A stretch of 63,413 bases of DNA, filler included, from Folioceros fuciformis (GCA_049999805.1; 6 parts of 5 records of this genome joined end to end with filler, not necessarily neighbours in it), one strand, 5' to 3'. Positions 8,881 to 62,187 are shown, counted from the first letter of the whole stretch. Numbers and translations are program-made. Notes: a model not told the origin generated them from the sequence alone.

Positions 8881-8974
8881 GACGCTTCACCATAAGAACT
8901 CAACTATGTACATTTTATTCTATGGAGGCAATTGAGTACACATGAATGCGTATTGAGTACACATGAATGCGTAT

Positions 8975-13958: not shown

Positions 13959-14353
<395 letters not shown>

Positions 14354-38420: not shown

Positions 38421-40072
38421 GAATCGGGTGATTTTTGGTTTGGATTGTTTTGTGCTGGAAAGTGTCCTCCTAAGCGGAATGCGCTTCTAGAACCTGTTTC
38501 CCAACAATGAAAGTAGATGGGCTCCTAAGGGACATGTGGATGGGTTGCAGGCCTTGCAGGGAAACCCATCGGATGGGGGATGGGTAACAGGGAAACCCCT
38601 TTGTCTAGCTTCATGGCTTGTCGTGTCGGAATTCACAACAGTGGAGTGTACGACAATGAATATTTGTTGTACCCAAATAACTCCAACTCCTCAATTCTAC
38701 CTTTTAGCACACAATCACCACACACACGCTATCCGGGCAGCGGGTCCTGACATGGTGCGTTTTCAGTTTTCCTGCACTGATTGCAGCCGGAGGTGGAGGC
38801 GGAGGCGGAGAAGAGGCCTTCCAGCTCGCCAGTTCACTGAACCCGTGACTCGTACGTACCAGGTGGGGAGGCTCGGGGGGCTAGGCTCGGAGAGCTAGGC
38901 TCGGAGGGCTAGGCTCGGGTCCAGGCTCGGCGACAATCACGGAAGATACGAGGAGTGAAATTTCTGGAGGCTCGGGCCGGCGGGATTACTGGAGGATGGC
39001 GACGTGGAGACATGAGGGGAGGGTATTTGGTGCGCCGCATCTTGTGGGAGGCTGGGCTTGTTCCAAGTACGGGACCGAGGTTCGCGGCCATCCAGGTTCG
39101 GAGATTCAGGTTCGGCAGTGCGGTCTGGCGCGGGACGAGATGACGCGCTCAGAGCCTTCCATTCTGCGCAGCTCCTCAGAGCCTCACAACAGCCATCCGA
39201 GCTCGACTGCCCTTGCTTTTATTCCGTCTGCGCCACATTAGGACTTGCATTACACGCCCGCGCCGGATCTGAAGCTGCTGCATTGTTGGTTTGAGTGTTG
39301 TTGTGGAAGAACGGGGACTTGAAGGGGGAGGGAAGTAAGGCAAGACGTTTTGGTAAGCCTAATTTGTCTGCCTCTGCCCGCCGGTTGTGGTGCTGTGGTT
39401 CTTGTTCCTCGTTGATGCTTGCTGCAAATTGCGCTCTGGTGATTGAATGTTGCCTGTGTCTACGGTTGTGGTTACAGTTGTTCCTCCTGCTTCCTACACG
39501 GTCCGAGTCTGGTTGCACGTGGTGAATTGGGACTGAAAGTCTGTGCCTGATCGGCCTTGTCACTGCCTTTTGAGGTGTGGAGGACGGGTTTGGAAGAACG
39601 AAGGATTGTTATGTATTTTGCCGCCTAGTTGCGGCGCTGTGGTTTCACGAAGTGAATTGGCGAGTGGAAGGCTAGGTCTTTCGTGTTCTTCGCTTAGTGG
39701 AACTGGTTTGGTGTGGTTTAATTGTGAGTGCACTGCGCCGGAGTCTTCGCTCGTTAGTGAGGTTGATCGGTGAGTTTGTGACTTGATCTGGTTTTGGCGC
39801 CCTAAGCAAATGATTGTCGTTGTGCAGGGTTAGGAGATATTACGTGTTGCAGAAATGGCTTATTCCGTTGTCTNNNNNNNNNNNNNNNNNNNNNNNNNNN
39901 NNNNNNNNNNNNNNNNNTTAATTAATTAANNNNNNNNNNNNNNNNNNNNNNNNNNNNNNNNNNNNNNNNNNNNGGAGACGGTGCCTGGAGAGGAGCAGCA
40001 ACAAGGGAACTTAGGTTCCCACCCCCCCCCCCCCCCCAGATAAGCGTTCAGATCCAGCTGCGGTAGCTAGAG

Positions 40073-43000: not shown

Positions 43001-44629
43001 TTTAACAGACATGTCCAACAATTTCTGTTTGTTGGGATGTCCCAGTCTCGCATGCCATAACATAGCCAACTGTTTGGTGTCCATATTAGCTAATCCAGTA
43101 CTGTGGACTGTGGCAGTCTTAACGGGTAAGAGGTCAAGGCAATACAGATCATCTTCAAGGAAACCCTGGAAGATAGAAATGTCGGGCGCTGCCTTCCTGT
43201 AGAAGGTGCACGTATCACCGGTGGCTCTCATTTCAATCGTCCGTAGCTTGAGAAGCTGGCTCATGGACAACAGATTTTTAGCCATGTCAGGTACGTACAA
43301 AACGCGTTCAAGGGTAAGATCTGAACCGTCCTTCAGTCTGAAAGTAACTTTGCCTTGTCCCTTAACTTGCAGGCTGCTGTCAAGTTGTTCATCTCCTAGA
43401 AACACCTTGTCGTTCTCACAACATAAGGTCAGTGAGATGAAATGAGTCTTGTTCCGATAGATATGAGCCGTGGCACCGGAATCAAGGTACCAGCTTTCCA
43501 TGTCCAGACAAGAACTTGTCAAGCAAACTGTAAGTATCTTGACCACATTTTTAGTGTCGCTGGATTTCTCCTTAACGACACTAGCCGAATTCTTAGGAGT
43601 TCGCTGCGGCTCACCAGCCCTCTTTTTCTTGCACTCACGGGCCCAGTGCCCAGCAATCCCGCACCAGTTACAAGTCCCTGTCCGCTTAGGTGGGTTACCA
43701 GAACTGGAATCAGACTTCAGGGTACCCTGAAACTTACCCTTGCCTCTGTTAGGTGTATGCCTTGCCGACAGAATTTTGTCTCCCTTGGAGCGTGAGCCCC
43801 CAGATGAGTGACTCCTGGCTTGTTCCTCCTGAAACAGTGCTCCGATGAGGGTGTCGACTGTATAGGTGGAGGTCCGGCCAGCTGAGGCAGTCAGGTAGGG
43901 AATATTCTGCGTAGTGATGAAGCCTTGGTACGACGGTGGCAACGTTGTGAGGAGGTGAGCGGCTGCATCCAACTCATCCATTTTCGTACCCATGCTCAAG
44001 AGTTGAGATCGGAGTTGACGAAACTTGGTGATGTGAGCAGCCATCTTCTCCCCCTCTCTCATCTTCAACGTGTAAAATTCCTGTCTTACAGCACAGAGGG
44101 ACATCAAATTTTTGACTTGATATGTACTCGCGAGCTGATCCCAAACTTGATGTGCTCGTGTGTGGAATTCCACTGTAGGTACAAGGTCTTCATCAAGGCC
44201 ATTTATCAAGAAAGCAAGAGCGATAGAGTTGAGGGACTGCCAACGCTCCACAGCAAGTGCGGATGGGGGAGGACTGCTGTTGGGGTCCGGCTCCGGAACT
44301 GACTGGTCCACAACCCCCCAAACTCCTCGAGCCTCGAGAGCAGATCGCATGCGCACCTTCCATACTGGGTATTTGGTGCCGTTAAAGCGGTCTTTCTCTT
44401 TCATGTCTGAGGTAAAGGTGGGGAGAGGTGCTGACCGATGCCAAACCGGGTTTGCAGGAAGGGGTGGTGGAGGAGGAGGTGGAGGAGGCGGTTGTGTGGG
44501 ATTGGTACCCATCTGTGGTACTAACACTAGCGCGTGCAACTGGGCAGAGAGTTGATCCACCAAGGAATCTAGAAAACCAGGGTGAGGAGGGTCGCTGCCG
44601 ACGTCAGAGGACGCAGAGCTGTCTGTCAT
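40073..44629 (-). CDS. Intact Ty1/Copia gag-pol polyprotein (element E1)
   Basis: Uninterrupted ~1518 aa: Zn knuckle CNWCGIAGHWAREC, protease YLDSGA, integrase WHARLGH / TDDYSR / RTDNGGEF / NGVSER, RT YVDD, RNase H TDADW..EAEY..CDN..ADIFTK, in Copia domain order. Confidence 0.97.
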   Translation of the reverse strand: MTDSSASSDVGSDPPHPGFLDSLVDQLSAQLHALVLVPQMGTNPTQPPPPPPPPPPLPANPVWHRSAPLPTFTSDMKEKDRFNGTKYPVWKVRMRSALEARGVWGVVDQSVPEPDPNSSPPPSALAVERWQSLNSIALAFLINGLDEDLVPTVEFHTRAHQVWDQLASTYQVKNLMSLCAVRQEFYTLKMREGEKMAAHITKFRQLRSQLLSMGTKMDELDAAAHLLTTLPPSYQGFITTQNIPYLTASAGRTSTYTVDTLIGALFQEEQARSHSSGGSRSKGDKILSARHTPNRGKGKFQGTLKSDSSSGNPPKRTGTCNWCGIAGHWARECKKKRAGEPQRTPKNSASVVKEKSSDTKNVVKILTVCLTSSCLDMESWYLDSGATAHIYRNKTHFISLTLCCENDKVFLGDEQLDSSLQVKGQGKVTFRLKDGSDLTLERVLYVPDMAKNLLSMSQLLKLRTIEMRATGDTCTFYRKAAPDISIFQGFLEDDLYCLDLLPVKTATVHSTGLANMDTKQLAMLWHARLGHPNKQKLLDMSVKQCFREPLPRCFKDLPSCEACIIAKQKEHPFPFAPAYRATFVLGLVHADISGRIQVPSIGGSNYYLTLTDDYSRYTWTFPMQRKSDVLEIFKEWLPAVQRQTGLLLKYLRTDNGGEFVNDAFDAYLAAEGIQRQLTVPYTPQQNGVSERKNQSLLSMTRSMLLWSGLPQVYWAEAISAATYVLNRILTSSIPNQTPYEALHKKKPSLLHLRVFGSRAYAFIPAKKRQKLDPRAQALVFVGYSEQAKAYRLYDPTTRKMFLARSVTFIEPHSPLLAQAPQTEGVTAVPEETEGATTYPVPEDQVTHHMYPQDTEPAVRLLDAAVETDALPADPPATEPLAALEIQAAPDPAALNAPSSPAQADEDFPVVADEHDSDFIADEDIHEDVQLPIVPPVEITRDPEEVAPRRSERHRPPPDQWAEPRYQSIDFRHRAAPATTHTAPSAIPDEPRTLVEAYNGPDSKQWYAAVEDEYQSLIKNKTWTLVDLPPGRKPISCKWVFKHKLNAEGKIARYKARLVARGFTQVEGLDYQETFSPVVRSQSIRMLLALAAEFDLDLWQMDVCTAYLYGSLDEELYMQQPEGYVSKQHPKKVLKLLKCIYGLKQSGRVWYFTIHVYLLGLSFVQSAADTNVYRLTRGTAFVIVALYVDDVILVTNSKALLAEVKQMLSDRFEMKDIGDLKFCLGIQILRVREEGLLIIHQHKYIREILHKFKMDQARPAVTPSAVGIKLTLSQYPTTTEAKQDMADVPYRHAVGSLLFVANWTRPDIQYAVSTASQFMENPGRPHWVAVKRIFRYLQGTHTYGLFYKRSGTGTFHLSGFTDADWGSDSDGRRSLSTYYFLLANASASWSCRKQTTIALSSTEAEYKSLTEASKEAEWARQFLADLGHPQLSPTPILCDNTGALDLVANPRYHARTKHIEIQHHYIRDVSARGVVRVGYVDTELNTADIFTKPLPKLKHYTHMTGLGLQDYSAYFDSVS

Positions 44630-45015
44630 ACGCAACGATTCCCTTCTGGAGGTGACGACCTACGGAAGGAAAGAGGGTATGTGTAACACTACACTATTGA
44701 TTGTAGTGCGCTAACCAGTGGGATTGCAAGGGAGGGTGCTGTCCAGGCACACAGGGAGGACCAGACAACTAGCAGGAGTTGGCTGGCTCGTCGTGTGTGG
44801 CTGGACGGCTCCTTCCTCAGTAATCCCGCCTTCCAGTTAGGTACTGTCTGTTGGCTTAGGGGCAACGCCAACCGACAGCGACTCTGTACCCGGTGGTGCG
44901 CGGCCTTCAGATCTCGCTCTCACACCTTCGGCAACGTGGACGCGCCGTTCCGCCAGCCGTCCTCACATGCCGAATAGTCGCGGGAGCAAACGCGGCGCTT
45001 CGCACCTCCCGGCTC

Positions 45016-45582
45016 TCAGGCAGCGGAATGTGGATGATCGGGAAGCACTGATGCCTGCGGGATGCCGTCAGCAATCTCCAATCTCAGCAGGTAATCAGTG
45101 AATTCCTTGATCTTCGTCGTCAATTGCTCAGCCAAATGCTTCATTTCATTGACGAGAATTCTTGTATGGCTGTGGTCTGTGGAGGTACAGGTCTCATGGA
45201 TGGGAAAGTTGAGTTGGCGGGGGACCGCGCTGCAGTGAAGGCCTTGCACAGGGTCTCCGCCTACGTAATTTGACGGATTGCCTGGAAGGACCTCCCTGGG
45301 TGCTGCGCAGAAGGAATCCGGGGCAAAAGGAGTGTAAGATTGCCGATGCCGCCTGCCTTTCCTCTGATTCCCAGAAATTTGGTCTTGCCGGTAGAATCGC
45401 CGAAGTAATTCAGCACGCTCCCGGTCTTGTGACCAGTAGGGATCGTGACCTGTTCCTCCCGCCAGATAGTATGCCAGGGCGTTAATTTCAGCCGGGACCG
45501 TCTTGGGAAATTGGCGCTGATTATCGCACTTGTAGAAATGCGATCCGCGCCCCTGATTGACGGAACCGCCTCGCCGAGGCAT
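45016..45582 (-). CDS. ORF0: intact 188-aa extra ORF between the PBS and gag of E1
   Basis: ATG lies 38 nt after the PBS and the ORF starts MPRR. An equivalent ORF occupies the same position in sister elements. Confidence 0.65.
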   Translation of the reverse strand: MPRRGGSVNQGRGSHFYKCDNQRQFPKTVPAEINALAYYLAGGTGHDPYWSQDRERAELLRRFYRQDQISGNQRKGRRHRQSYTPFAPDSFCAAPREVLPGNPSNYVGGDPVQGLHCSAVPRQLNFPIHETCTSTDHSHTRILVNEMKHLAEQLTTKIKEFTDYLLRLEIADGIPQASVLPDHPHSAA

Positions 45583-45619
45583 ACTTAGCAACGAGAGAGG
45601 GACATCAGAACCAGAGAAA

Positions 45620-45814
45620 CTCTGATACCATATTAAGTTTGTAGACAGCGGGGAGCGAGAGCCGGAGGGCGAGAGGCATTAGCATACAAACTATCCAAAT
45701 GATTAAGTGTTGATAAAGAACAAAAAAGGATCTTTAAATATAGTTTCGAAGTACTATCCACAGAACCCTAACCTAGCCGGTTAGTTGACCAGTGTAGGGT
45801 TATCCCTTTCAACA
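45620..45814 (-). mobile_element. 5' LTR (45814-45631, about 184 bp) and tRNA-iMet PBS of E1
   Basis: Minus strand reads TGTTGAAAGGG...CTTAATA then TGGTATCAGAG. It abuts an interrupted older Copia ORF. Confidence 0.75.
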
Positions 45815-46465
45815 ATACCATACACAAGATAGAAGGTCAAGGAACAATTCAGCTCAATCTCGAGCCCAATCAATTTGGAGATATCAAATGTATTATATGT
45901 TCCAGGTTTGACAAAGAACCTTGTATCAACCCGGAAGATTGATGAATCCGGCTGTTATGCTTGTTTTGGTGGTGGCAAGTGTGTAGTTGAAACTGCAGAC
46001 GGCACACTTTTGGCCACTGGTCACCTGCAAGACGATGACCTCTATCACTTAGACCTCAAGAAGCAGCAGGCAAACTCAGTCTTAGCTCATTCTCACTTTG
46101 CCAAACCCTCACTTACTTACTTGTGGCATTTGCATCTTGGCCACATGAATTTTCAAAAACTCGTGAAGATGTATTAGGAGCATCTAGTTGCTGGGGTCAC
46201 TTTGGATAACTTGGATGACTTTGGCGTCTGTGAGGCATGTATTCTTGGTAAGCATAAACGAGCCCCGTTTCCTATAGAAGCAGCCACAAGAGCTACTGAA
46301 GTGTTAGGACTTGTGCATAACGATATTTGTGGCCCCTAACCTAAATCTATTGGTGGCAAGGAGTATTATCTGACCTTTATAGATGACTTCACGCGTTTTT
46401 GTGTACTCTATCTCCTGAAGCGCAAGTTTGACACCTTTGGCTGCTTCCTGGAGTTCAAGGCATGG
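45815..46465 (+). mobile_element. Older Copia protease-integrase fragment, cut on both sides by younger insertions
   Basis: NVLYVPGLTKNLVS, LWHLHLGH, CEACILGK, LVHNDICGP, FIDDFTR, with stops. Confidence 0.9.
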
Positions 46466-47745
46466 TGTGGGGGAAAATATTGCACCCGTGGGTGTTGCGA
46501 GGTCCACACAAACCCTCTTTGTCGTTATAGCACTAGGATTCGATCCCAAGGGAATGATTTGTGTCAAATAACACAGGTTTCTTCTAAAAGACAGTTACTA
46601 CCTAGGTTGGACTTCAACTACCTAGCTCCACTACCTACAGGTTCAACTACCCCTACCTTTGTCCCTGAACTACCTGACAGACCTACTCGGCTACTAGGGT
46701 GGGGGTCTCTACAACTACCGACCCTTCAACTACCGAGGTAGGGGCTCAACTACCGGTAGCCGCTTCGGCTACCTCCGTCGTCTTTTAACTACCGGTAGCC
46801 GCTTCGGCCATCTCCGTGGTGGGTCCCACTTTCTCTCTCCTTCTCTTTCTCTCTCTATTTCGCTCCTTCTCTCTCCTCTACCTCGTGGTTACCCTCTAAT
46901 ACTTACTTTACTAGTCCTTGCCTTTCAAACCGCCAGCAACTTACCTCCAGTCGCGCTCACCTACGTACTCATAGACCTCCGCCCTTGCTTGTCAACCCTC
47001 CAGCGCCTCGTCCGAAACGCACCAGCGTCCATCATACACACATCGGCCCTCAGAGAATCGCGAGGGGCCTTTTGGTTGTACAGTTCCCAATCTATTCACG
47101 TAACCCCCAAGCCCGAACTCAGGTCGTTTTGCTCTTGATTGCCTTTCAGCTACACAAGCGCCCAGGTCTTGTCGGTGTTCGATCTTTCCAACTCGACTAC
47201 TCCTCTTTCATGGTTCCCCTTTCTCTCACACTTCCGGCACACGCCCTTGGTTCGCAGCGCCTCTCCGCGACGCCTCCAACATTTCCTGTTTTTATTATAG
47301 TGTCTAGTCTCTTTCACCCTCACAGGGATCTCGGCAGCTTCCACCATGTAGCCATCTCGTGTTTCTGCCACCACTCTTCTCCTCTCACACACACTCCAAT
47401 TGCGTGGTCCTGTCCTGACGACCGCTCAACATCTCGCACTCACACTCGCTTCCTCCCTTGATCCCGCTTCATCGCTTGTTTACATTTTCTCGACTCCATA
47501 CTTAGTCCTGCCTCTCCGGGCCTTCCCCTATGGAATGAAGGAATGCTGAAACACTGGGGCTTCGGGAAGGGATACCCACTTCTACTCCGAACTCACGGAT
47601 TCGGCCCCGACGTCCTCACCACTCCATGTGATCACCCCTAGGATAGCAAGGGAGCTCGTCTCCCACTCGGTGAGGTTCCACCTCCCGATTCGTCCCTTGG
47701 CTCGATCGTGGAGCGTCCACCACCTGCACCCACACCCCCAGGTTG
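46466..47745 (-). mobile_element. 3' LTR (47734-46466, about 1.27 kb) and PPT of a probable Ty3/Gypsy element
   Basis: Inverted termini TGTGGG...CCCACA, preceded on the minus strand by CAACCTGGGGG. It interrupts the Copia integrase exactly at 46466. Gypsy is inferred from LTR size and style; pol is not visible. Confidence 0.7.
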
Positions 47746-47986
47746 CTACGTGCGCGCGCTTGCCTAGACTTCCTGTCCGGCAACGGCCATCGCTAGACTC
47801 CTGCAAGGTTGGGTGGTTGGGCTGATTTTTACTAATTTTCCAGGCCTCAAGCTGGCCTCTTATACACGATGGTGGCGGTCTTTCCGCTATAAAGTCTGTC
47901 AGGGATCTGTCGGCGCTCTTAAATTCCAAGCGGCTCCAGTCCATGTAAAAGCATTAAAAAAAAAATGCTATCCTAGCCTGCAATTA

Positions 47987-50476
47987 CTATCGCCACTCTC
48001 CACGCCGTTGGCGCCTTCCCCCCAATCTGCGCGCTTCTCCTCTCACTGGTCCCCCTCTTGCTCTCCTACCCCTCCGTTGATCAGGCAGATCTTCCAACAG
48101 GATCTCTACATCACTACTGCTGCTGAACCTTTCCGGCGGCAGCACAGGTGGGCCCCGCCGCTGAGAACCACTGTTCCCCCTTCTCCTCTGGTTTCTGAGG
48201 ATGGCAACAGGCTCCCGTTCTACCCATTGTTGGCCCTCTTCTTTCGTCAACTCCTCCAGAACTGCCTCCGCGTAGCAATGGGGCAGGCCTGTCATCCACC
48301 AGCTGTAGCGGTAGAGTCCCTTACGGGTCCTCAGATGTAGGCCGTAGCCCCCCGTCCCTCCTGTGCCCATACGTACATACAGAAACAGTTTAAGAACTCT
48401 GGCCCCTTCCACATAAAGACCTGGCACATAGGAAGCCTCCTCCTCATACTGCAGCACAACCCAACCTTCTGTCATAAAGGAGGTGCTTACCCCTTCCTCC
48501 CTTGGGCTACCGTGGGCTGTCTGTTCCCCATCTTTCTGGGGTACCTGAAGATCCTTCACCCGTCCAGCTGTTGCTTCCTCCGGCTCTGTCCTTCTGGTGC
48601 GGATCAATCTCCTGGAGTGCCTAAGCTCAGGCGCCTTCGCTGTTTCTTCCTTGGTTCCCAGGGCTGTTCCCTCGGCTACTCTGGGCTTAGCAAGGCTACC
48701 GGTAGCCCTGGCGACTACTCGGCTACCGGTAGTCCGCTCAATTACCGGTTCCCCTGCTCGACTATCGGTAGCCTCTTCAGCTATCGGGGTCGCCGTTTGA
48801 CTTGGGCGCCCAACCTTACCCTTCCCCTTCACTCTCTCTCTGGCTTCGTCTCGCTCCCTCTTGCACCTGTCAGCCAGCTTCTGGGCCTGTTCCACGGCTG
48901 CTATCTCTAGCTCTTGCGCCTTGGCCATCTTCTGCTGTATCTCCAGGTTAATCTCATGGGCCTCCCTCACCTGAGCTAGTAGGATCCCCTGTTGCTCCCT
49001 TAGCGCTTGGACCTCGGCCTTTGCCTGGCGTACCTCTTCCTCAGCCTGTGCCTTCTCTTTATCTAGGACTCGCTGTCTCTCCTCCAGCTGTTGCCGCGCC
49101 GCCTCCGATTTTGCCAATAGCCTCCGGGCTTCACCCTCCTACTGGCATGCCTCTACTTCCTTCCCTTGGGCCTCGGCTTCCCGTTCCGCCTGCACACTCA
49201 GCCAGGTTAGTGCCCTAGCAGCCTGGTCCATGAGATCTGCTTGGGCCTGTACCATCGCGGCAGTCAGCCCTGGCAGATCCACCTCCTGCGTTTTTCCAAC
49301 AGTCATTCCCCTCGCCATAATCTGCTTGCCCAGAAACTCCCTCAGCTTCTCTAGGTCTCCCACGTGCAGCCTATCCTTTCTGAGGAATGCTCCTGAAGAT
49401 TTCCTCCCATCTTGAAAAAGTTCCTTGCGCTGAAACATGCCCTAATTCGCTCTCATGCCTAGGAGGAATTAACTCAGCGGCTAACGTCTGCTCCTAAGAC
49501 CCCTTAAGCCCTGCTTCATCCTGCCTCTGCTCTTCCAGTCCTTGATCCATAACCCCCCGATTAGCGAGCCCCTGTTCTACCTCCTGTTCTTGTACAGCCT
49601 GCTCCTCTATCTGACCTTCGATTCGCTCCAGGGCTGTCTCCGACCTACTCCCTCCTTTCGTGCTATGCCCGCTGACCCATCTCCTCTTGGCAAGGGTCTT
49701 CTCCTGAGCTGCTGTCCTCCTCTTAGGCCTGACGGGAACCTCCCCCTGCAAGCTGTCCCCACTCCCCGACACCCAATTGCTGGAGTCAGCCTTCACTGGC
49801 TCAGCAAGCTTCCATTTTACATCTCTGATTGGCCTCCACATGTGCAGTGAAGCCAACACCTCCAGTTCCGACACCAGGTTAGCATAACTATAAATATGCA
49901 CTAGAAACGGGGAAATCATCGAGGGCTGAGGAGAGGGCAGGCTCAAATTCTTCCTCTCCTCGTCCATCTTGGCATACAGAATTTTTCCCCAATCAATCTT
50001 GGTCCCCTTCACTACCTCATGCACAAACAGGAGCATCTGGTCAGACAGATAATCCTGTTTGCAAACCTGGAGAAAACTAAGAAACCACCTGGCCAGACCC
50101 ATCAGCTGTGGGCTCGCCATGTCGCGAACCAACCATCCGTTAGCCTCCTTCTTCGTGCCTAGTTTGAGCAGTCCTTCAGCGTCTCCCGTACCCCCCCTGT
50201 TTCCTCAGGGACTCCAGCACCAATCCTCCCTCTTCTCGTTGGTCACGGCCATACACCCTCCTCACTAGCTCCAGGTTCCACCCTTGTGGTCTGCCTCTGA
50301 TCCCCTTCTCACGGACAGGTTCCCTCAACCTCAAGGTGCACTCCCTTACCAACTATGGCGCTGCGTGGTTCCACTGCTGGGTCATGAAACCCAGACCCAA
50401 TTCATCCACCAGCCCTCCTGCTCTGACCCTCCAGTGCTCCATGTTGGGCCACAAGAGTAGGTCGATCCGGGGAACA
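47987..50476 (-). mobile_element. Long extra ORF (with stops) immediately before the PPT of the Gypsy-like element
   Basis: Segments 50476-49494, 49438-49139 and 49117-47987: globular domain (LVRE..IRGRPQGW..NGW..IDWGKIL..ISPFLVHIY), coiled coil and a C-terminal hydrophobic-rich block. Confidence 0.65.
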
Positions 50477-50576
50477 NNNNNNNNNNNNNNNNNNNNNNNN
50501 NNNNNNNNNNNNNNNNNNNNTTAATTAATTAANNNNNNNNNNNNNNNNNNNNNNNNNNNNNNNNNNNNNNNNNNNN

Positions 50577-51337
50577 TCTACAACCTCAAGCCGGAGCAGA
50601 ATCCTGTCTGTAGCAAATGGATCCGACGTAAGGTAAGGTTGCCCTTCAGCAATTCTCTGCCCTCCTCTTGCAGATGCAGGTAGCTCCTCGTCTTCACCAA
50701 TTCGCTGCTCCAAACGGTCTAGCAAGCGCTGGCGATGTGCTGCCGCATGGCCTTCAAAACTGTTTGGGGAAGCTGATGCTGTTGCAGCACGAATGCTATG
50801 ATTTCTCCTAGCACGCATTCCATCTCTGTCAGCAATCCAGCCATGTGTTATCAGCTCATTGTGGCGCCTTTGGATGTACTCCTCCCTGGCTAGAGCTCTA
50901 GAAGAATTGTTGATAGGTGGACATCCCCAACGTCGTCCATTTCTCCTAGGCATTTTTCCAGGCTAGGATGCTAGTATTCATCTAGCAATATTCTTATTGT
51001 TTACTACACATGTGTGCAGGCAGGCGAACCCGCGTTATCATCAGACACATGCATCTATCTAATGATAAATGTAGATGTTCGATGATAACCCTGTTTCGCT
51101 TGCCATGCTCTACATGAATTTAGCTATGTGCCTAGCTAAAGTAAACAAAGTGCAGCGGAAAGATCAGAGACACAGCTCTGCTACCATGACACGAATTAGA
51201 GAACACACACAAACATGTACTCATCAGAATGATTAATTAAATTAATGAACAAAATTATGTCTTATATACTGTGTTAAATATAAACCCTAATCGTTAACTA
51301 TGTGAGGTTAACTAACCAAGAGTAACAAACTCTAACA
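50577..51337 (-). mobile_element. 5' end of Copia-like element E2: 151-bp LTR (51337-51187), PBS (51186-51175) and partial ORF0 (50953 to gap)
   Basis: TGTTAGAG...GTGTCA followed by TGGTAGCAGAGC (iMet PBS, one mismatch). The ORF begins MPRRNGRRW and is open to the gap. Confidence 0.65.
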
Positions 51338-51857
51338 GATCAAGATTTTCTGACAAGTTTTTCATTGGCGCACGTTGGCGCACGCAACAACGTTTAGGCC
51401 AGTTCAAAGTTGAGTGAGTCTCATCAAGATTGAACCGGTGCCAAGTTTGGAGATGTACTGAGAACAAGATGGAGTTTGGCAGATGCGATGTTTCCGCAAG
51501 GTTGGATTTATCTGTGAAACAAATCTCAGAAGGATTTGAACGTCTGCCTCATGCATCGCTTTATACTCGAAATAGAAGCCCTGCATCATGTTCCAAAAGA
51601 GAGATGGCGGATGTGGTTAAAGAACTTAAATCCACCACCAAACTGGATCAAGTACACAACCTTGTGAGGATACCGCTGACACAAGATATGTCATGCCGGA
51701 GGATTCCAAACCGGCACCCTCTAAATCAGCAGACTGAATAAGGGGCAGAACTCCTGCCTGGTTGACCAAGGATCCCAATAAACCAAAATCAAGGTCGGAG
51801 TCTCATAGATTGTGGACTCCTACACCTGCGAGATCCAAATTGCGTCCCACTGCAAAG

Positions 51858-54800
51858 ATGGCTACTACAGCAATTAAACTAGACCTTAAAGATAAGGACA
51901 GATTTTTTGGACAATTATGATGTCTAGGCCCATCGCCTCAAGACTATTCTGCAGATAGAAGACGTCTGGGATGTGGTCAACGGTACTATTGCAATTCCAT
52001 CTGGACAGGCGGCTACGCAAATAGACATTGATGCGTGGAAGAAGAAGGACTTACGAGCCAGAGAAATTTTGGAGTTGGCAATCGACAGTTCGATGATTCA
52101 CCACATCGATGACGTCGATACATCGCATGAGGCTTGGACTGCTAAGCCAGATGTTCGCTACAACGAACCAGTCCTCACTCGTTCATGCAACTCGGTCCTT
52201 TTGGAACTGCAAGATGAAGGATGGTGAGAGCGTGGAAGATCACGTTATGCGATTTCGCCATCTACGTCAAAAATTAGCATCTGCAGGCACCAAGGTTACT
52301 GAATTACAGGCTTTCGTAGCACTGTTAATGTCACTCCCGGAAAAATACTGGATCTTTGTTAGTACACAAAACAGTAATCTCAAATCTATTGTAGCTGGAG
52401 CAGTCTCCTTGTCTAACACAATAGGTGCCCTCCTTGAGGAGGAGGCAACACTTACCTTGTCCCGGCAGCATGCTTCGCAAAGCAGTAGAGCTCTCTTCTC
52501 ATCGAGTGGTGGTCGTGGCATTCGAGGAGGGCGCTATGCCCAATGTGGACGAGGAAGAGGCATGTCTTCAGGGTTTCAAACAAACAAGCACATCATCTAT
52601 AACTGGCGCAGAATACCTGGGCATGTAGAGAATGACTGTAGGAAAAAGAAAGTAGGTGAGCCAAGGAAACTTGCACAAGGAGAAGCAAACATGTCAGTTA
52701 AGACCAAGAATGCGTCCACGATACTGGCAGTTTACCTTGCTCATGCCAAAGTGGAGAGGAATCGGTGGTTTGTAGATTTTGGAGTGTCCACAAATATCTG
52801 CCACTGTAAAAAGGATTTCTCGACTTATACTAGCATGGACCCAGGACATTATGTCCTTCTGGGCGATGAAAGTGGTTTACAGATAGCTGGAGTGGGAGAA
52901 GTTCCCTTACTCTTGGCAGATGGATCAATTCGACATCTGCGAGAAGTGCTCCGCGTTCCACAGATGAGAAAGAATCTCATCTCAGTAAGACAAGTCTGTA
53001 AAGACTGGGGTGTAACGATTGAATTTGATGATGAAACCTGTTGGTTAAGAGATATGGCCTCAAAGGAGATCTTGATGACTGCAAAAATGGAGTCCGACCT
53101 GTATCTGCTTGATTGTACGTCTGCAAAATCCTCACAAGCAGCTCATGCATATTTGGGGGTCAGGACTCAGTAGAATGATGCCACTTATATCTGGCACTGT
53201 AGACTAGGGTACCCTAGTCTCAAACGCATGGAGGCCATCTTCAGAGGAAATTTGTATAAGGATACACCCAAGCTAACGCTCTCCACCAAACTATTCTGTG
53301 AGGTGTGTGAAATTGCAAAGTCAAAGTATAAAAGTCCTAAAACATCCGATGCAAGTAAAGCTTCAGACCTGTTGGAAGTTGTTCATACAAACTTGTGTGG
53401 ACCCATGTCCGTTACCTCGCTAGGTGGATCTCGTTACTTTATGGCTATCACCGATGACTAGAGTCAGTTTACAATCACTTATTTTCTTCATCTAAAGTTG
53501 GAAGCGTTGGACAGGTTCTCTGAATACCTGCTCTATGCACAACGGTCCGCTGGCAGGCAGCTTAAAGCAATTAGAACCGATAACGGCGGGGAATTTATCA
53601 GTGATGCTTTCAATAAGTTTTGCATGGAAAGAGGGATAGCTCGACAATTTACTGTGCCATACAACTCCAGCCAAAACGCAATTGCTGAATTGAAAAACAG
53701 GTATCTTCAAGAGTGTGCGAGATCGCTCCTTACTCAATCCAAACTGCATAGAAGGTACTGGGCAAAAGCCATTCAAACGGCGACTTATTTGCATAATCGA
53801 CTACCGACCACGGTGTTTGAAGCAGCCACACTGTTTGAACGCTGGACGGGCCGCAAACCGAGAATAGATCACCTACAGATTTTTGGTGCGCCCATCTATG
53901 CTCATGTTCCAGGACAACTTCGAAGGAAGTTAGATGATAGAGCCAAGAAGCTCATATTTGTGGGATACTATGAACAGGTCAAAGGTTATAAGACTTATGA
54001 TCTAGAAACACGTAGTGTTAGCTTCACACGCTCTGCTAAATTTCATGAACGACAACAGTTCGCCACAGCACCGCAGAGTATTCCTACATTAACTCCATCT
54101 TTGCCCAGTACTGATGAGCAAGGGGATGTTTTGGAATTTGAACCTGAAGATGATTCCAGTCTAGGTCCACCTCCGCCTTCACAAATTCCATCCTCTACTA
54201 ACTCCACTACTGTATTTGATAATGTCGAAGATTTGTTGGAACCTAAAGTTGAGGAGCCACATGAGGAGGTTAGTCAACTGCCTCTATGGCGTTCTACGAG
54301 GCATCATACCTCATCTCCCCTTGAATGGCAGGAGGTTCCCCTTGCTATGCAGGATCATTTGTTCAGTGGGAGTACTTAGTTGTCAGTTTCTGACATCCCT
54401 TCACATGGTATGGCACTCATCGCCAAGGCTCTCCTGGCAGCACAAGATTTAGGTGAGCCTGCTACTTTATCCGAAGCTCTGAGTGGCCCTAATAAGGACA
54501 AATGGCAAGATGCAGTTAACTCTGAATATGCATCCATCATCAAAAATTGTACCTGGCAGCTTGTTCCTCTACCCTCGGGGAGGAGGCCAATTACTTGCCG
54601 CTGGGTATTCAAAACAAATCTAAATCCTGACGGCAGCATAGCCAGGTACAAAGCGAGGCTTGTCGTGTGTGGCTTCACTCAACGAGAAGGAATCGATTAC
54701 TTTGAGACTTTTTCACCTGTTGTCAAAACGTCGTCAGTACGTACCCTTTTGGCATTGGCAGCTCAGGGAGGATTTCTGGTACACTAGATGGATGTTTAGA

Positions 54801-56068
54801 CAGCCTTCCTGAACGTCATTCTCAAAGAGGAGGTTTACATGTGTCAACCTGAGGGATTTGTAGATAAAAACCGACCTACAGACATTTGCAAACTGCTAAA
54901 AACCCTGTATGGTCTAAAGCAATCTCCCAAAGAGTGGAACAGAAGACTACATAAGTATCTCCTTCGTAAGGGATTTGTTCAATCTGCCTCTGATAGCTGC
55001 GTGTACATCTATAGAAAAGGAGATCAGGTGACATACGTGGTGGTGTACGTCGACGACACTTTGATACTATCTTCGTCGTCAGCAGTCATGGAGGAGGTTA
55101 AGCAAATTCTCAAGTCAGAGTTTAAGATGATTGATCTCGGCCAAGCTTCTTTCTTCCTTGGAGTGCACGCTGAGCTGCTCATGACACCTAGTAGGATCGT
55201 GATACATTAGAGACATTATATTCAGAGGTTGCTGGAAAAGTTTAATATGACTGAGGCTAAGCCTGTGAACACACCTATAGCAACAAGTGCGTAGCTCAAT
55301 AAGGAGCAGTCTCCTAAGACGTCGGAGGAAGAGAAGGAGATGCAACAAGTTCCATACCGGGTACTTGTGGGATGTTTGCTCTGGGTGGCAAATTGGACCA
55401 GGCCCGATATAGCTTTTGCGACGTCACTGGTTTCACAATATTTGGTTAATCCAGGACCCGCACACTGGGTAGCAGCAAAACACATACTCAGGTATTTAAA
55501 AGGAACTGGGGATTTGGGCCTAGTCTATGCACAACAGAGTGAATCACAGAGTATCATTGAAATGCATGCGTGGTCAGACTTCGATTGGGCGTCGGACACC
55601 GATACTAGAAGGTCAATCACAGCATATTGCATAAAACTTGCGGGCAGTGTTTTTACCTGGGCTTCAAAGAAACAGAGTGTGGTTGCGCAATCATCCACGG
55701 AAGCAGAGTATATAGTTGCCGTGAGCGCGGTCCAGGAGATCATGCATTTGAGAGCGTTGCTTGATTCCCTGGGACATACACAAAAGCATGCCACAATACT
55801 CAAGTGCGATAATCAGTCTGCTATTGCATTGAGCAAAAATCCAGTTATGCATTCAAGGACGAGGCACATGGACGTTAAGTTGCATTTCATCAGGAAAGCG
55901 ATAGAAGATGGGCACATCAGGGTAGAATATGTGCCGACAGCTGAAAACGTGGCAGACATTCTTACCAAGTCTTTGCCTAGGGCAAAGCATGAAGAGCATG
56001 TAGCAGCACTAGGACTGACCAACCTGGAGAGGATTCAACAATCAAAAGCACAAACAAGCAAGACGTAG
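51858..56068 (+). mobile_element. Full-length but decayed Copia gag-pol (element E4), same lineage as E1
   Basis: gag DLKDKDRF, knuckle ..GHVENDCRKKKVGEP, RTDNGGEF, YVDD, EAEY, ADILTKSLP. Several in-frame stops and frameshifts. Confidence 0.95.
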
Positions 56069-56539
56069 ATTCTTCAGCACTTCACAACTTGCAGCGTTGA
56101 ATTGAATATCATCACCATAGAGCCGTCATCCGAGACATGTGACTAGTGTAGTGTCAGCCGCATGGCCGGACAGCGTGAGGTTGTAGGAAGAGTGCGCAAC
56201 GAGTCGACAGTTGCTGCACTCAACCCTTGAGCTTTCGCTAGGCGGCGATGCCACAATTGAAGCTGGTGGCGAGCTCTCTCTTCACTTATCGTGGGTGGAG
56301 AGCTTGAGTGGGAGTTGTGACGACGCCACTCCGTCACCATGGTTGCGTGGTAAAACGCGAGAAGAATTGTCAGGTATGCTTGGTGGTACGCCTGAATGTA
56401 GCTAAGAAAGCTGCCGTAGTTATGAATGTAAAGGATCAGCGCACCGAATTGCAACATCGTGAGAGATGGTCAAGCTGTCAGCAGTAGCTGGCGGCCGGGC
56501 CAAGTTCGAGAAGTTCAAGACTGAACGGCTGCCGCTACG

Positions 56540-56724
56540 ACTAAGTGGGAGTAAAGAAGTATCGAAGAGTAGTCTAGGGTAGCCGCCTGGATAGCTAAAT
56601 AGGAAAAAAACCTAATTACTTATTTATATATATTCGTAAATAGCCCTAGATTTAATAGTCACGTGAACGTAAACTCCAACGGTTGTAACCGTCAGCCGCA
56701 TGCTATGTAAACGTTTGATTCACA
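56540..56724 (+). mobile_element. Putative PPT and short 3' LTR of E4
   Basis: actaagtgggag followed by about 170 bp with an AT-rich TATA region ending ttcaca. No 5' LTR is available for comparison. Confidence 0.4.
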
Positions 56725-57354
56725 GTAAAATGCATCTTTGATGAATTCTAGATGTCCGAACCCGTGGCAGATCACAGGCCAACAAGGGGACAGGAGAGCC
56801 AACCAGGAAGGGAGAACGGGAAAGGAAAAGCAAAAAGGGGTGGGCTGTGTTCTCTGGCACGTCTAGGCCTTACGGGATGCCTTGACCTCAATCAACGGGG
56901 AAGAGAAGGAAGAGCAACCTCCGCCGATTCAAGAGGTAGTTTCGATTTGCCAGCCGGCGGTTGAGAAGGAGAATCTAGAAAAAGAGAGGGCGAGTATTGA
57001 TCCTGCGATGCACACTAAAGGTGGTGCCTGGACAGGGGAAAATCGAATCCATGAAACCAAAGAAGCAGGAGGAACCTCGCGATTTAAGAACTTGAGAGCG
57101 TTAGGATTTCCACTAGATGTCCGGAAGGAGGTAATGGAAATGATTCGAGAAGAGCTGGAGCAGACCACGACACACCCAGCCATGTTACGGGTTAAGCTGC
57201 CATATGGTTAACTTATCATATTTAGATATACCTTTCTGTTTTTAGGGTTTGGCTNNNNNNNNNNNNNNNNNNNNNNNNNNNNNNNNNNNNNNNNNNNNTT
57301 AATTAATTAANNNNNNNNNNNNNNNNNNNNNNNNNNNNNNNNNNNNNNNNNNNN

Positions 57355-58311
57355 GTTCTTCTTCATCAATATCATGAAATTGTTCGGCTGGTGCTCGTGT
57401 TCCCCTACCTAAGGGGAGCCCGGTTCGACGTGTGGTCGTAGCAAGGCTAATTTCTCCCTTATAATCTTCTTGTTTGCCACATATAGGTGCTTGCGTAATG
57501 TCAAGTGGAATCTGTAGTACACAATTATGGTTTTCTTGCTGTACAATTTCTAAACATTTGGAGGACGCTTGAGCTTGACCTTCTTCCCACCTGTTCCTCA
57601 AAATCTGCATCCCTTCCGTGCAACAAGTACTCTCTGACATACTTGCCCTCATATGCATCCGTATGATCTGTTTGCTACCAATGCACCAACAAGTACGGCT
57701 CCCCACGTGTGAAATGTGTGCTCACAACTTTTGCCACCCAAAACTCCCTATTATGAATATCACCCTCACATGGGGTGATTATGAACATTCTTTTTTCTGT
57801 ATCTGCAAGACATCTCCATTTATCCATGAAATCTCAGCCTCATGTCTGCTAATACTTTGGTATGCACCTATATACATGGGCCTCATCGGCAGGTCGCGAA
57901 GAAGCGCTTCCTTTAACATAACCCCTTCTGGTACCTGCATAGGCTGAAACAATCTTTCTGCCTCAAACCTATTGTACCACGTCCAGGGGATCGTCAGTAA
58001 CAAACCTATATTGTTGTCCACAATATTAGCAATTTCCTCTTGATCTTGCCAGAAGTCTTGCCACCACACATTTTCTGCATCAGTTAAGTATGTAGCTAGT
58101 TTTAACAACCCTTTCTTTACATGTCCCACACATTCTCTCGCAGTCATCTGCCCTTCATGCCCCTTTCTATCCTTTGGCTGCAGTGATAGTAGAGTTGTCA
58201 GTTTAATGAATGTATCCGGAACATGCGTAAGGCACTCCAATCCTTCCTCAGGTTCCCAAAGAAGGGAGGTGGCGTATTGCTTGCTCTGGATAACAGTGAC
58301 ATATCTTTTGC
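57355..58311 (-). pseudogene. Frameshifted non-Copia coding remnant fused to the truncated E3 integrase
   Basis: ...WWQDFW...RPMYIGAY...[shift] REFWVAKVVS...LLVHW*...AYEGKY...FHLT. Possibly the C-terminus of a DNA-transposon protein; family not certain. Confidence 0.4.
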
Positions 58312-61300
58312 CTGGTTTGGGCAGAGCCTTAGTGGTAAGTTTGTTCAGAATATAGGTTGCTGTGACCACAGCTTCTGCCCAGTATGGAGACGAAAGTCCA
58401 GACCACAACAACATGGATTTGGTCATGCCCATTAAGGTTTGGTTCTTTCTCTCCGCCACGCCATTTTGTTGCTCTGTGTAGGGAACAATAAGTTGATGTA
58501 TTATGCCTCTGTCTTCTAGAAATTGTTTGAATAAATTACTGACAAATTCGCCACCATTGTCAGATCTGAAAACCTTGAGAAGACAGCCAGTCTGCCTCTG
58601 AACAAGAAGCAGCCACTCTTGAAAAAGAGGAATGTACCACTTTTCCTTTGCATAGGATATGTCCAGGTATATCGACTGAAATCGTCTGTGAAGGTAAGGT
58701 AATATTTTGCTCCACCCAAGGATGGGACTTGCAGTCGTCCGGAAATGTCTGAATGTACTAAATCCAGGACTGTTGTCGTTCTGTGAGTAGGTATGCGAGG
58801 AAATGACGCTTCTCGTTGCTTTGTTAAAACGCAAATCTCGCATGTGGGGAGTTCCTTGAAACATGAAGGTAACGGCTCCCTGTAACAGTCCTGTCTAGAT
58901 GATGCCAAGAGTTTAGTCATGTTAGCATGGCCTAGGCATGCATGCCAAAGCCTGGCCATCTGGGTAGCTGTTAGGCTGCCTTTAGTTGTTGAACAGATGT
59001 GCTCTCGACGTGTCCAGGATATGTCTAGGCGATACAATTCTGACTCTAGGAAGGCCTTAAAAATACAAACTTCAGGAGCACTACGTCTAGAGAAGCAACA
59101 TACAGTTCCTGATACATTAAGTACTAGACTCTTCATTTTCATGAGTTTACTCAAGGACATCAGATTTTTCGCCATCTTGGGACATGTAAAACATATGGAA
59201 GCACTAGCTCAGAGTCATCATGTAACAAGAACTTACAGGTTCCAGATCCTAAGATACTTAAACTAGTGGCACTACTCTCATCACCAAGGTAGACTTTGTC
59301 TGGAGCAGAAGAAAACGTGAGGCAAGTGAGAAGAGACTCTTCCCGACAGATGTGCGCTGTTGCCCCACTGTCCAGGTACCAAGTGTCAACATCACTCGCT
59401 AGAGTATGAAGACATAGTTAGAATCTTTACAACTGGCTTGCCTAAATTTGGTGTTGAGAAATCCACTGTATGCTTATCTTTATGTTGTTGGGTGGTTAAA
59501 GTCGTAGTTGCTGGACGGGGTACCACCCGTTGAGGTTCGCCAACTTTCGTTTTGCGACATTCACGAGCCCAATGACTGGGTAGCCCACACCAGTTGCAGT
59601 TGCCTTGGCGTTTTTGTATATTTGATGAGGAGCTCTAGCCGCCAATGTTGGATGGTCGTTGAGACTGATTTCTTCCACAACCCCGGCCTCTACCCCTCCA
59701 GGCAGAATATACCTTGTCATTCTTGCCTTTATGCTGTCCTTGTCCGCGCATGTGACAGACTTGTTCTTCTTGGTATAATGCTCCAATAACAGCGTTGAGT
59801 GTTCGTGTGGATTGGCCTACAGGGACAGGTTGACCAGGAACCTGAATAGGAACATTCTGAGTGGTGACAAAGGTCTGATAGCTAGGAGGAAGACTGAGAA
59901 GAAACTGTGACACCACTTCAATCTCAGTGAAGGTAGTGCCAAGGGAGGCTAGTTGAGCACGCAAGTGCCGGAATTTGCTCGCGTGAGCAAAGACCGAGTC
60001 CCCCATCTCATCTTCAAGTTTATAAATTCTCCTCTAATAGCACACATCGTCATCAAATTCACTAATTAGTAGGTAGAAGCTAACTGGTCCCATATAGCTT
60101 TGGAAGATTCCAAAAATTCGACTTCAGGGACTAAATCAGAATCAAGACCAGCAATAATCAGGGCAACAACTATGCTATTTGCTATATCCCACTTGATCTT
60201 CTGGCCTGGAGTAACAACAGAGCCAGGAACACTTGGATGGGAAGGAGTCCCAGGATCAGAGTAAGTGCCATCCACTACTTTCCAAACTCCGCGAGCAATT
60301 AATGTAGACTTCATTCTGATTTTCCAAATATCATAACGCGTTCCATTGAAACGGTCTTTTTCTTTCAGATCTCCTGTAAAGGTTGGAATCACTGTTCCTG
60401 GTTGAATAGGAGGGGTAGGAGTAGCCATGACTGAGTCTACAACAAGCTAGTCTACGGAAGAAGACATACAGGTAAGAAACACTTCATATGAAATGGAAAA
60501 ACGAGATATGAACCCTAACTGAAAACCGTCTGATTAATTAGGGCTATTTCAAAAATTTATTGTTTGGAATAACTGAATGGGAAAATAACCGACATGACTG
60601 TTGTTCAAGGCAGCGAGAATTGAAAGGTAGCCCTGAATTTGTGGATGGAGCGCGCAACAGCTGTGGCAAATCAAGAACCCTAACTGCTGCCACTCAACCA
60701 CCTCAAAATTTTTTCTCAAATTAAGTTGCAACAGGGCTTGCAGGCCCTGCGCAATCTGCCATATCATTCGGAATTACATGCATTGAGTGCAACAATTGTG
60801 TGATGCACTCAATGCCGTGATTAATGTCATAGCTTCTATTGCTCATTTGTCGCAACAAACGTTCTTTCATATCATAAATTGACTCCAAAAAACACTCCTG
60901 CCTAGAGAGTAATTGAAAAAATCTAATTTCAATTCTCTCCAAATATTTTTGAATTAAATCTCCAGAAAAATCTCCTCTTCTCTCTTGGTCAGGATCCTTT
61001 AAGGCGCTCAATTTCTTCTTCAGTTTTGAATTGTTGGAACGCGAATAAAGATTATGCTTTACACAAGATGGCAAGATTTTTGCTGCTTGGAAATCACCTT
61101 CAACATCCTACTCACATAACTGAATTCGATGCGGTCTTCGCTCTTGGGCTTGCTTGTGCCAAAATGCACGGAGTTGAGTCCGATATTCATCAAGATATTC
61201 TTGGCTCCATGGACCTTATCGGGGTAGTGGAATCCACTCCACTCCTCGGCGAGTTTGATGTTGCATCTCCCGGGGCAATGATGAATCAACTACCCTCCTA

Positions 61301-61556
61301 CGAGGCATGGTTGCAGGCCCAAAAGGATCAGCATCTAGAATTAGGCTCTGATACCATGTGACGGAGTCTCAAACATCCACATTAAGAGGAATGTCTAGGA
61401 TACAAGAGACTTTGGGGTGACACACAAGTGGGTGTGCAAAATACTCAACTAACTCAATAAACACAAAAATGTGACATATGTACATTTAGGGTATGTGCCC
61501 TAATGAAAGTAGCTTTAACTTTATCTATTTAACCCTAAGAGGTTATTTATCTAACA
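58312..61556 (-). mobile_element. 5' half of Copia element E3: 200-bp LTR (61556-61357), PBS (61356-61345), ORF0 (61308-60721), decayed gag-PR-IN from 60428
   Basis: TGTTAG...CACA + TGGTATCAGAGC. gag IPTFTGDLKEKDRFNGTRYDIWKIRMKS is closely similar to E1. The integrase breaks off at about 58312. Confidence 0.9.
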
Positions 61557-62187
61557 CATCTAATCATCAGTCCTATTGTCCAACTCTTACTTTTAAGTGA
61601 ACAAGTTATGTTTTGATGAGGGACAACATTAACGGGTACTCATCTCATAAGCCATTTAGCAAATTCCTTCTTGCCAATAGCCATAGTCGGGCATCAAAAA
61701 ATGAAGTTTACAAGTAAAATCATACATGCATGCACTCTTCATCTGGCTCAATCATCACATGATACCTAACCAAAATCCAAAGGATATTGTCTTTTTCCAT
61801 GATCTGCGTGTACTCCACTCAAAACCCCAAATAAGGGTATGATCAACACACAAAGTTCTCTGCATGTGCTCCTCAACTACCTATTATCACGCTGCTCTTT
61901 ATATCCAACAACTCTAGTGATGGGTATGGGAGTTGCATCCCTACGGGGATGGTACACTGGCACTACATGGTTTGCTTTATGGCCCAACATGGCACTATAA
62001 GTGTATTCCATTCAAACGCCGGTGTCATTGGAGTGTACGAGTTCTTCTTCATCAATATCATGAAATTGTTCGGCTGGTGCTCGTGTTNNNNNNNNNNNNN
62101 NNNNNNNNNNNNNNNNNNNNNNNNNNNNNNNTTAATTAATTAANNNNNNNNNNNNNNNNNNNNNNNNNNNNNNNNNNNNNNNNNNNN

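Follow-up and report, generated by a model that had tools for sequence, protein, structure and literature searches.

A Probable Accessory Open Reading Frame Between the Primer Binding Site and gag in a Copia Lineage of Folioceros fuciformis

Three diverged retrotransposons of the long terminal repeat (LTR) type within a 63,413-nt stretch of DNA from Folioceros fuciformis (GCA_049999805.1), referred to here as the window, carry a sense open reading frame (ORF) that starts with the residues MPRR downstream of the primer binding site (PBS), in the part of the element that precedes gag. The elements are designated E1, E2, and E3 and the extra frame ORF0, which is probably a real, fast-evolving accessory ORF specific to one Copia lineage. 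The direct observations behind this description include the ORFs themselves, their depletion of stop codons, a codon signal confined to that frame, a start that is conserved, a lack of homologues in the collections searched and, in E1, a depletion of AUG between the start codons of ORF0 and gag.

The window (63.4 kb) is an artificial join and not a single locus, with linkers of the form N44-TTAATTAATTAA-N44 at five places. Since the linkers lie between contigs, E1, E2, and E3 each occupy a contig of their own, and adjacency across the join points is meaningless. All three elements are truncated by contig ends and none of them shows both LTRs within the window. E1 is the only intact element among the three; E3 is clearly decayed.

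ORF0 as a Probable Coding Frame in Three Elements

An earlier interpretation made from the DNA alone (the sequence-only reading) had described the frame as intact in E1 (188 amino acids), as a 195-codon frame with two in-frame stops in E3, and as running from its start to the contig end in E2. These coordinates and lengths hold (Table 1), the E2 frame being open for 125 codons, and MPRR does begin all three. The frames are beyond chance. When the frame fixed by MPRR was compared with 20000 dinucleotide shuffles, E1 had no stop in 188 codons (mean in shuffles 4.97, P 0.0042), E3 had two in 195, at codons 31 and 67 (mean 10.62, P 0.00105), and E2 had none in 125 (mean 5.76, P 0.00155), which combine by Fisher's method, worked out by hand, to a P of about 1e-6; the remaining two frames of the same stretches hold 4–18 stops. 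A codon log-likelihood score for in-frame vs. out-of-frame codons, trained on the gag-pol of E1, was positive in frame 0 alone of each ORF0 (0.10, 0.08, and 0.07 bits per codon) and negative in the other ORF0 frames and in every frame of both ORF0-gag spacers. The GC content of ORF0 by codon position is similar to that of gag, and no tandem repeats occur in the three ORF0s. On balance, we are somewhat inclined to regard ORF0 as a real coding ORF under selection.

A PBS of the initiator methionine tRNA (tRNA-iMet) type lies ahead of each ORF0, as had been claimed. With at most one mismatch this site occurs three times in the window (0.33 expected) and is followed by an MPRR frame in 3/3 cases, while sites with two mismatches (6 vs. 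5.48 expected) are at chance level. The identification of TGGTATCAGAGC as a tRNA-Met PBS draws on established knowledge and on PMC6317226 and not on a tRNA gene of this organism; ARAGORN found no tRNA genes in the window and none in 60 loci. Behind all three sites the start reads ATG-CCT-MGN-MGN, with arginine codons that vary synonymously (CGG, CGT, and AGG at codon 3; CGA, AGG, and AGA at codon 4). The ATG follows the PBS core after 37 nt in both E1 and E3, and after 222 nt in E2, where the extra length contains a hairpin. The pattern ATGCCNMGNMG is found eight times in the window (1.66 expected), and the five instances away from a PBS run into a stop after 5–51 codons.

The LTR and leader DNA of the three elements is unalignable apart from the PBS, and the gag-pol proteins of E1 and E3 are only 37–50% identical. 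As four neutral codons would not survive such divergence, the persistence of MPRR implies that something selects for it. Position, start, length and stop depletion of the frame are all kept over this distance, and the claim of a conserved sense ORF between PBS and gag in one Copia lineage is in this respect borne out.

Two further features of the leaders may be mentioned here. The E2 hairpin is an imperfect palindrome of ~120 nt with a fold energy of −52.4 kcal/mol (z −6.7). E1 and E3 lack it, and it may represent either the insertion of a small element or a leader with structure of its own. At the junction of LTR and PBS, the final A of the LTR and the TGG of the PBS form an ATG in all three elements (45631/45619, 61357/61345, and 51187/51175, minus strand), which opens an upstream ORF (uORF) of 7–9 codons whose TGA stop lies within a common CTGAT motif; in E1 and E3 this lies 23–26 nt ahead of the ORF0 ATG.

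Sister copies provide a view of the frame over shorter distances. Two DNA runs from one sample contain E1 itself, with four differences, and contigs of diverged sister copies, aligned at 80% likeness. The sisters match gag at about 85%, a block over the ORF0 start, PBS and LTR (45449 or 45524 to 45675) and a second block, from 44859 or 44999 to about 45130, over the ORF0 end. Two sisters have other sequence in place of the middle of ORF0 (399 nt skipped vs. 387 nt present, and 318 vs. 348 nt), so that its length changes by 12 nt in one and 30 nt in the other, each a multiple of three, and both sisters carry a 3-nt insertion close to the ORF0 C-terminus. Among the indels listed (12 of 20), all six of 1 nt are located outside ORF0 and gag, either upstream of the ATG or within the spacer. 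This pattern favours a retained ORF0 frame. Another run (X3) differs from the window between 44300 and 45900 by C>T at 135 places and by G>A at 134 more, a pattern that points to a bisulfite library from which the methylation state of the element might be read; run X4, putatively RNA, matched a low-complexity part of gag with two short pieces but did not match ORF0, and is uninformative on expression.

The assignment to Copia stands for E1, whose polyprotein matches the Pfam families Retrotran_gag_2 (residues 94–276), Pol_BBD (380–461), gag_pre-integrs (495–568), rve (587–683), and RVT_2 (1019–1263) in the domain order of Ty1/copia (Pseudoviridae), and is in keeping with the gag and integrase remnants of E3, which are ordered as in Copia. 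The E2 contig is devoid of gag-pol, and this element would belong to Copia to judge from its LTR, PBS and ORF0 start. A PBS of tRNA-iMet type beside the 5′ LTR, as expected of Copia, is present in all three. The short LTRs (150–200 bp) of the sequence-only reading hold for E1, where the DNA runs contain a 184-nt unitig of higher depth whose two ends coincide exactly with 45631 and 45814 and whose flanks differ; this outside support for LTR limits extends to E1 only among the three, and the LTR starts of E2 and E3, which have no LTR pair, are putative. The gag ATG lies 386 nt past the ORF0 stop in E1 and 292 nt past it in E3 (at 60428), in agreement with the distance of about 290–390 nt given previously.

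The motif TTAGGGTT, which resembles a telomere repeat, occurs 11 times in the window (1.57 expected), including once in the U3 region of each of the three LTRs (45764–45771, 51283–51290, and 61531–61538). It is also found twice in the E3 spacer (60511, 60676), in a cluster of four (24814–25407), and at 32638 and 57242, and may be a shared promoter motif.

Table 1. Features of elements E1, E2, and E3 and of the joined window (positions counted from the first nucleotide of the window).
Feature	Position	Strand	Remarks
E1 5′ LTR, 184 bp	45631..45814	-	TATA-like box and TTAGGGTT motif; limits from unitig in DNA runs
E1 PBS TGGTATCAGAGT, tRNA-iMet type	45619..45630	-	1 mismatch
E1 ORF0, 188 codons + stop	45016..45582	-	Intact; MPRR start 37 nt past 11-nt PBS core
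E1 spacer, ORF0 stop to gag ATG, 386 nt	44630..45015	-	1 ATG; coding score negative in all frames
E1 gag-pol	40073..44629	-	Intact 1518-residue Copia polyprotein (gag, protease-region barrel, integrase, RVT_2)
E1 3′ end	39974..40072	-	G-rich polypurine tract + 48 nt to contig end
E2 putative 5′ LTR, ~151 bp	51187..51337	-	Start inferred from TGTTAG terminus; holds TTAGGGTT
E2 PBS TGGTAGCAGAGC	51175..51186	-	1 mismatch
E2 leader hairpin/palindromic insert	51003..51124	-	Between PBS and ORF0; inverted self-match
E2 ORF0, 125 codons	50577..50953	-	MPRR start; open to contig end
E3 putative 5′ LTR, 200 bp	61357..61556	-	Start inferred; holds TTAGGGTT
E3 PBS TGGTATCAGAGC	61345..61356	-	Exact
E3 ORF0 remnant, 195 codons	60721..61308	-	MPRR start 37 nt past PBS core
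E3 gag-pol remnant	57355..60428	-	Several broken frames; contig end cuts integrase
Contigs	1-15955, 16056-39873, 39974-50476, 50577-57254, 57355-62087, 62188-63413
Linkers	15956-16055, 39874-39973, 50477-50576, 57255-57354, 62088-62187

The Predicted Protein and Its Proposed Translation

The ORF0 proteins have in common their position, the MPRR start, a length of ~190 codons, basic charge and helix-rich C-terminal halves, together with the 37-nt spacing in E1 and E3. Their isoelectric points range from 9.0 to 10.8 and arginine makes up 9–17% of residues. BLASTP between pairs gave E-values of 0.3 or worse, global alignment scores were within the shuffle distributions, and the best ungapped three-way block (FTDYLLRLEI, IQKYLERIEI, TDRILLRLEV) had a P of 0.13. 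The shared WSQ motif and the similarity seen by eye in the sequence-only reading are thus not significant, an outcome past MPRR that this reading had itself named as counting against it. In an AlphaFold model computed without alignment, the E1 protein is predicted to be mostly disordered (mean predicted local distance difference test score, pLDDT, 50.9), with a confident helix only at residues 137–171 (pLDDT 80–94); the E3 model is helical yet unreliable (mean pLDDT 39.0).

An origin of ORF0 as a duplicate of gag was rejected, as comparison with the E1 gag-pol, 120 Copia proteins and all loci collected returned nothing with an E-value below 0.06. Protein scans of viral contigs showed no relative, and a pattern scan of viral contigs gave 0 matches. 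The reverse transcriptase (RT)-RNase H region of E1, on the other hand, matches thousands of Copia proteins, the best of them ~50% identical, and the gag motif of E1 and E3 was found in one (P0074) of 123 proteins collected; these two figures indicate that the organism's own elements are absent from the protein collections.

In 3/3 elements the AUG of ORF0 is preceded by A at −3 and followed by C at +4, a moderate context that some ribosomes pass (PMC5902531). Between the AUGs of ORF0 and gag in E1, a distance of 950 nt, there are 4 ATGs, where 12.9 ± 2.7 are expected (P 0.0002), and none of the other 63 triplets is as depleted in this stretch. The opposite strand is not depleted (13 ATGs vs. 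15.9 expected), nor is gag over its first 950 nt, with 13. On the basis of the moderate AUG context and the AUG depletion of E1, a bicistronic RNA read by leaky scanning is proposed. An ORF0-gag fusion by frameshifting was rejected, because ORF0 and gag do not share a frame and 14 stops interrupt the gag frame within the E1 leader.

According to this proposal, the full-length RNA of E1 would most likely serve as template for both ORF0 and gag-pol: part of the ribosomes would initiate at the ORF0 AUG, whereas the remainder would scan the 950 AUG-poor nucleotides as far as the AUG of gag. An ORF0 protein would then be made, and gag would be reached by leaky scanning, the latter step being deduced from a single element. 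The product would be a basic, arginine-rich and mostly disordered protein of ~190 amino acids with an invariant MPRR N-terminus and, in E1, an amphipathic helix at the C-terminus. It would evolve too fast for more than position, start, size and composition to be recognisable between families. The basic disordered part may bind RNA and the helix may mediate oligomerisation or docking. A function as a nucleic-acid-binding accessory factor acting on the element's own RNA or particle is put forward as a tentative and rather doubtful suggestion. The roles considered in the sequence-only reading (anti-silencing, RNA-binding or targeting) are likewise conjectural.

It is distinctly unlikely, though worth stating, that ORF0 is a 5′ accessory gene expressed by pararetrovirus-like leaky scanning whose small, basic product diversifies rapidly in an arms race with the host. 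Were this so, the product could be a suppressor of RNA silencing or a regulator of the element's RNA comparable to Rev/Rex, and the hypervariable, length-variable but in-frame middle of ORF0 in the sister copies would be a trace of the conflict. The Rev and Rex proteins of complex retroviruses, encoded besides gag, pol, and env, are also small and arginine-rich, the N-terminal part being basic and another part helical or rich in leucine; they are translated from spliced RNAs that derive from 3′ regions. Among PDB sequences, ORF0 matched them neither in sequence nor in structure.

Alternative Readings of the Leader

A number of observations weigh against ORF0 being a protein-coding gene. The homology of the three ORF0s comes down to position and four residues, with no alignment past MPRR. 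Pfam contains no family for ORF0, two word-indexed searches of 5.8 billion proteins found no homologue, phmmer found none for the E1 protein among 1.84 billion representatives, the best score in the ESM Atlas was 0.78 (under the level of a lead), and matches to PDB sequences had E-values of 0.3 or worse. The structure models are poor. With regard to translation, ATG depletion is absent in E2 (7 vs. 8.1 expected) and E3 (16 vs. 18.1), four ATGs precede the ORF0 ATG of E1 in the LTR/PBS region, and an AUG-poor stretch is also expected of a long non-coding leader scanned by ribosomes. In addition, the conserved blocks of the sister copies cross the ORF0 start and stop (17–157 nt into the spacer) and could be cis-acting RNA elements instead of reflecting protein constraint, and the Pro-Arg-Arg codons could likewise reflect an RNA element, with selection acting on the RNA.

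These last points lead to the view that the motif ATGCCTCG.MGG, ~37 nt past the PBS, is a cis-acting RNA or DNA signal or the start of a short uORF (candidates being a dimerisation-type palindrome, extended pairing with the tRNA or a regulatory uORF start) and that the long frames are incidental, which we consider unlikely. In its favour, CCT...AGG forms short palindromes in the start region of E1, E2, and E3, in the minimum-energy fold of E3 the ORF0 AUG region is base-paired to the 5′ portion of the PBS, and the sister blocks span the limits of ORF0. When metagenome contigs were scanned for a PBS core followed after 20–50 nt by ATGCCNMGNMG, at least 120 loci (L001–L120) matched, and at least 53 among the matches listed belong to a plant-like LTR family in which the PBS is followed after 39 nt by ATGCCTCG.AGG and a frame of 6 to 64 codons. 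This family is ~5.5 kb long, is abundant in a few metagenome projects (e.g., L100, L079, L020) and shows a second LTR 4.2–5.8 kb downstream in 12 of the 30 sufficiently long loci; its interior lacks gag-pol, so that it is non-autonomous. It may be a coincidence, a relic of an ORF0-bearing parent, or evidence of a cis-element. Since the pattern itself was used to choose it, the match may be due to chance, and nothing but the PBS and a stretch of 13 nt at the ATG is common to this family and E1–E3. No further Copia element with a long ORF0 was present among the metagenome matches listed, the rest of which are apparently due to chance (bacterial-looking coding DNA and one Gypsy element, L005, with a 37-nt gap and an 11-codon frame). 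The fold z-scores are weak (−0.6 in E1, −1.5 in E3), and the motif followed 0/4 exact PBSs of control Copia loci, so that it is no general requirement of iMet priming. A cis-element leaves unexplained the three long frames with their stop depletion, the frame-specific codon signal and the indels in multiples of three; at 188, 195, and at least 125 codons the frames also exceed the few to tens of codons of a uORF.

A different proposal, which we hold to be very unlikely, is that ORF0 lies within or overlaps an intron of the leader, gag-pol being translated from spliced RNA and ORF0 from unspliced RNA or never. It would account for gag being otherwise hard to reach behind a 188-codon ORF, and a pyrimidine tract that ends in TTCCGTAG is common to E1 and E3, 30 and 23 nt ahead of the gag ATG respectively, and is the sole strong acceptor-like site in the E1 leader (tract plus TAG end at 44660). 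According to a simple consensus of our own making, applied to the sequence only, donor-like sites occur in the E1 spacer (44966, 44925) and inside the E3 ORF0 (61115, 61097), but no donor position is conserved among E1, E2, and E3. Fusion of ORF0 to gag by splicing at the conserved acceptor is unsupported, as an in-frame TAG follows in E3, and the depletion of AUG over the whole of the E1 ORF0 fits scanning and not removal. A leader intron could nevertheless be compatible with a coding ORF0. That the frames are products of chance or decay, and MPRR a coincidence or relic, is extremely improbable. The controls were 80 Copia loci occurring as contaminants in prokaryotic assemblies, four of them with an exact PBS and two with long leaders; one leader among them (L158, 1271 nt) has an ATG ORF of 111 codons, so leader ORFs of this length can occur, and the E3 frame is already broken. 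On the other hand, the longest ATG ORF of a second control leader (L121, 1509 nt) has 60 codons, each single element has a P of 0.001–0.004 in a frame fixed beforehand by the ATG, the same four-residue start is found in 3/3 elements, and repeats are absent. In a related observation, 161 stretches in prokaryotic assemblies and metagenome-assembled genomes (loci L121–L200) match the Copia query patterns and 135 of them encode a relative of the Copia polyprotein; these stretches are eukaryotic contamination.

Genomic Surroundings and Known Extra ORFs

E1 is nested in an older Copia element, since a polyprotein fragment on the opposite strand (45872–46456, plus strand; 37% identical to residues 437–636 of E1) lies directly upstream of its 5′ LTR. 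Downstream of the E1 pol stop there is a run of 16 G, TGGG and 48 nt that have only TGTTG in common with the start of the 5′ LTR; these 48 nt show no match to the E1 5′ LTR, and the mismatching end is either a different 3′ LTR or an assembly artefact at the contig tip. No direct repeat pair was detected around E1 (38500–46800), as the end of the contig has cost the element its 3′ LTR, and the 99 nt between the pol stop and the contig end contain no extra 3′ ORF. Further copies were not found in the window by tblastn or blastn, and Rfam gave no family over its whole length. Other Copia remnants lie at 8455–8865, 52142–56023 (plus strand), and 62188–63411. Three ORFs on the minus strand (313, 99, and 208 codons at 47987–48928, 49139–49438, and 49494–50120) lie in a GC-rich stretch with strong negative GC skew; none has a Pfam family, and the stretch may represent a further mobile element of no assigned class.

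That LTR retrotransposons of plants can carry extra ORFs is well established (PMC7264820). Neumann (2019) defined classes of extra ORF (eORF) by their 5′ or 3′ position and forward or reverse orientation, counting only those of at least 250 codons, and recorded 582 Copia elements with an eORF in 45 groups, heterogeneous and mostly without known domains; the Copia eORF singled out is the 3′ forward ORF of SIRE, present in 74% of elements (PMC6317226). The statement of the sequence-only reading that 5′ ORFs are unusual in Copia agrees with this article, as far as its available text goes, given that it reports mainly 3′ ORFs in SIRE, yet it also defines a 5′ forward class. ORF0 resembles this class (eORF-5′F in REXdb) in being a sense ORF upstream of, and separate from, the polyprotein ORF, in another frame and free of repeats, but with 188 and 195 codons it is below the 250-codon cut-off, so that a survey of this kind would have missed it. 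An ORF between PBS and gag in Copia was not described in the full-text literature searched, which did not extend to the figures and supplements of PMC6317226.

The closest analogue is ORF0 of Retrosat2/FRetro3, Ty3/gypsy elements of rice, an extra sense ORF upstream of gag-pol which, like the ORF described here, is kept across relatives while diverging and has no outside homologue and no assigned function (PMC3485330). Retrosat2 is, however, a Gypsy element of >12 kb with LTRs of >3.2 kb (PMC3485330), whereas the present elements are Copia with LTRs of 150–200 bp, and there is no sequence relation. Ogre ORF1 and Athila ORF-1 are further extra ORFs beside gag-pol in large plant LTR elements, but these are Ty3/gypsy non-chromoviruses without a tRNA-Met primer, and some of their ORFs have known domains (plant mobile domain, Athila ORF-1; PMC6317226), whereas ORF0 matches no Pfam family. 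The Copia domain order and short LTRs thus set E1 apart from elements of the Ogre/Retrosat2 type, with their Gypsy order (RT before integrase), long LTRs and, in some members, a known ORF1 domain, and the position of the extra ORF 5′ of gag sets it apart from the env-like ORF of SIRE, located between pol and the 3′ LTR. For translation, the model is the pararetrovirus rice tungro bacilliform virus, in which leaky scanning over ~900 AUG-free nt has been demonstrated experimentally (PMC5902531). The likeness is a moderate or weak upstream start followed by an AUG-poor stretch of ~900 nt on the full-length RNA of a reverse-transcribing element, with 4 AUGs in 950 nt of E1; the difference is that ORFs I and II of the virus have no internal AUG whereas E1 keeps four, and that the case made here comes from one element, E2 and E3 being undepleted.

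The usual description of Copia elements is that they carry gag-pol and nothing else, the exceptions being mainly ORFs that lie 3′ of pol in SIRE. ORF0 adds to the known extra ORFs, of which 5′ ones occur in Gypsy elements such as Retrosat2. The finding would be an ordinary one if the motif were no more than a cis-element and the frame incidental to it. If ORF0 is a gene, an accessory 5′ gene would exist in a second superfamily, and surveys with a 250-codon threshold miss such genes. It would also pose a problem of translation, with gag placed behind a 188-codon ORF, to which the AUG-poor stretch of E1 suggests the answer adopted by plant pararetroviruses. Should the ORF0 protein counter silencing or control the RNA of the element, it would provide a handle on how these elements stay active.

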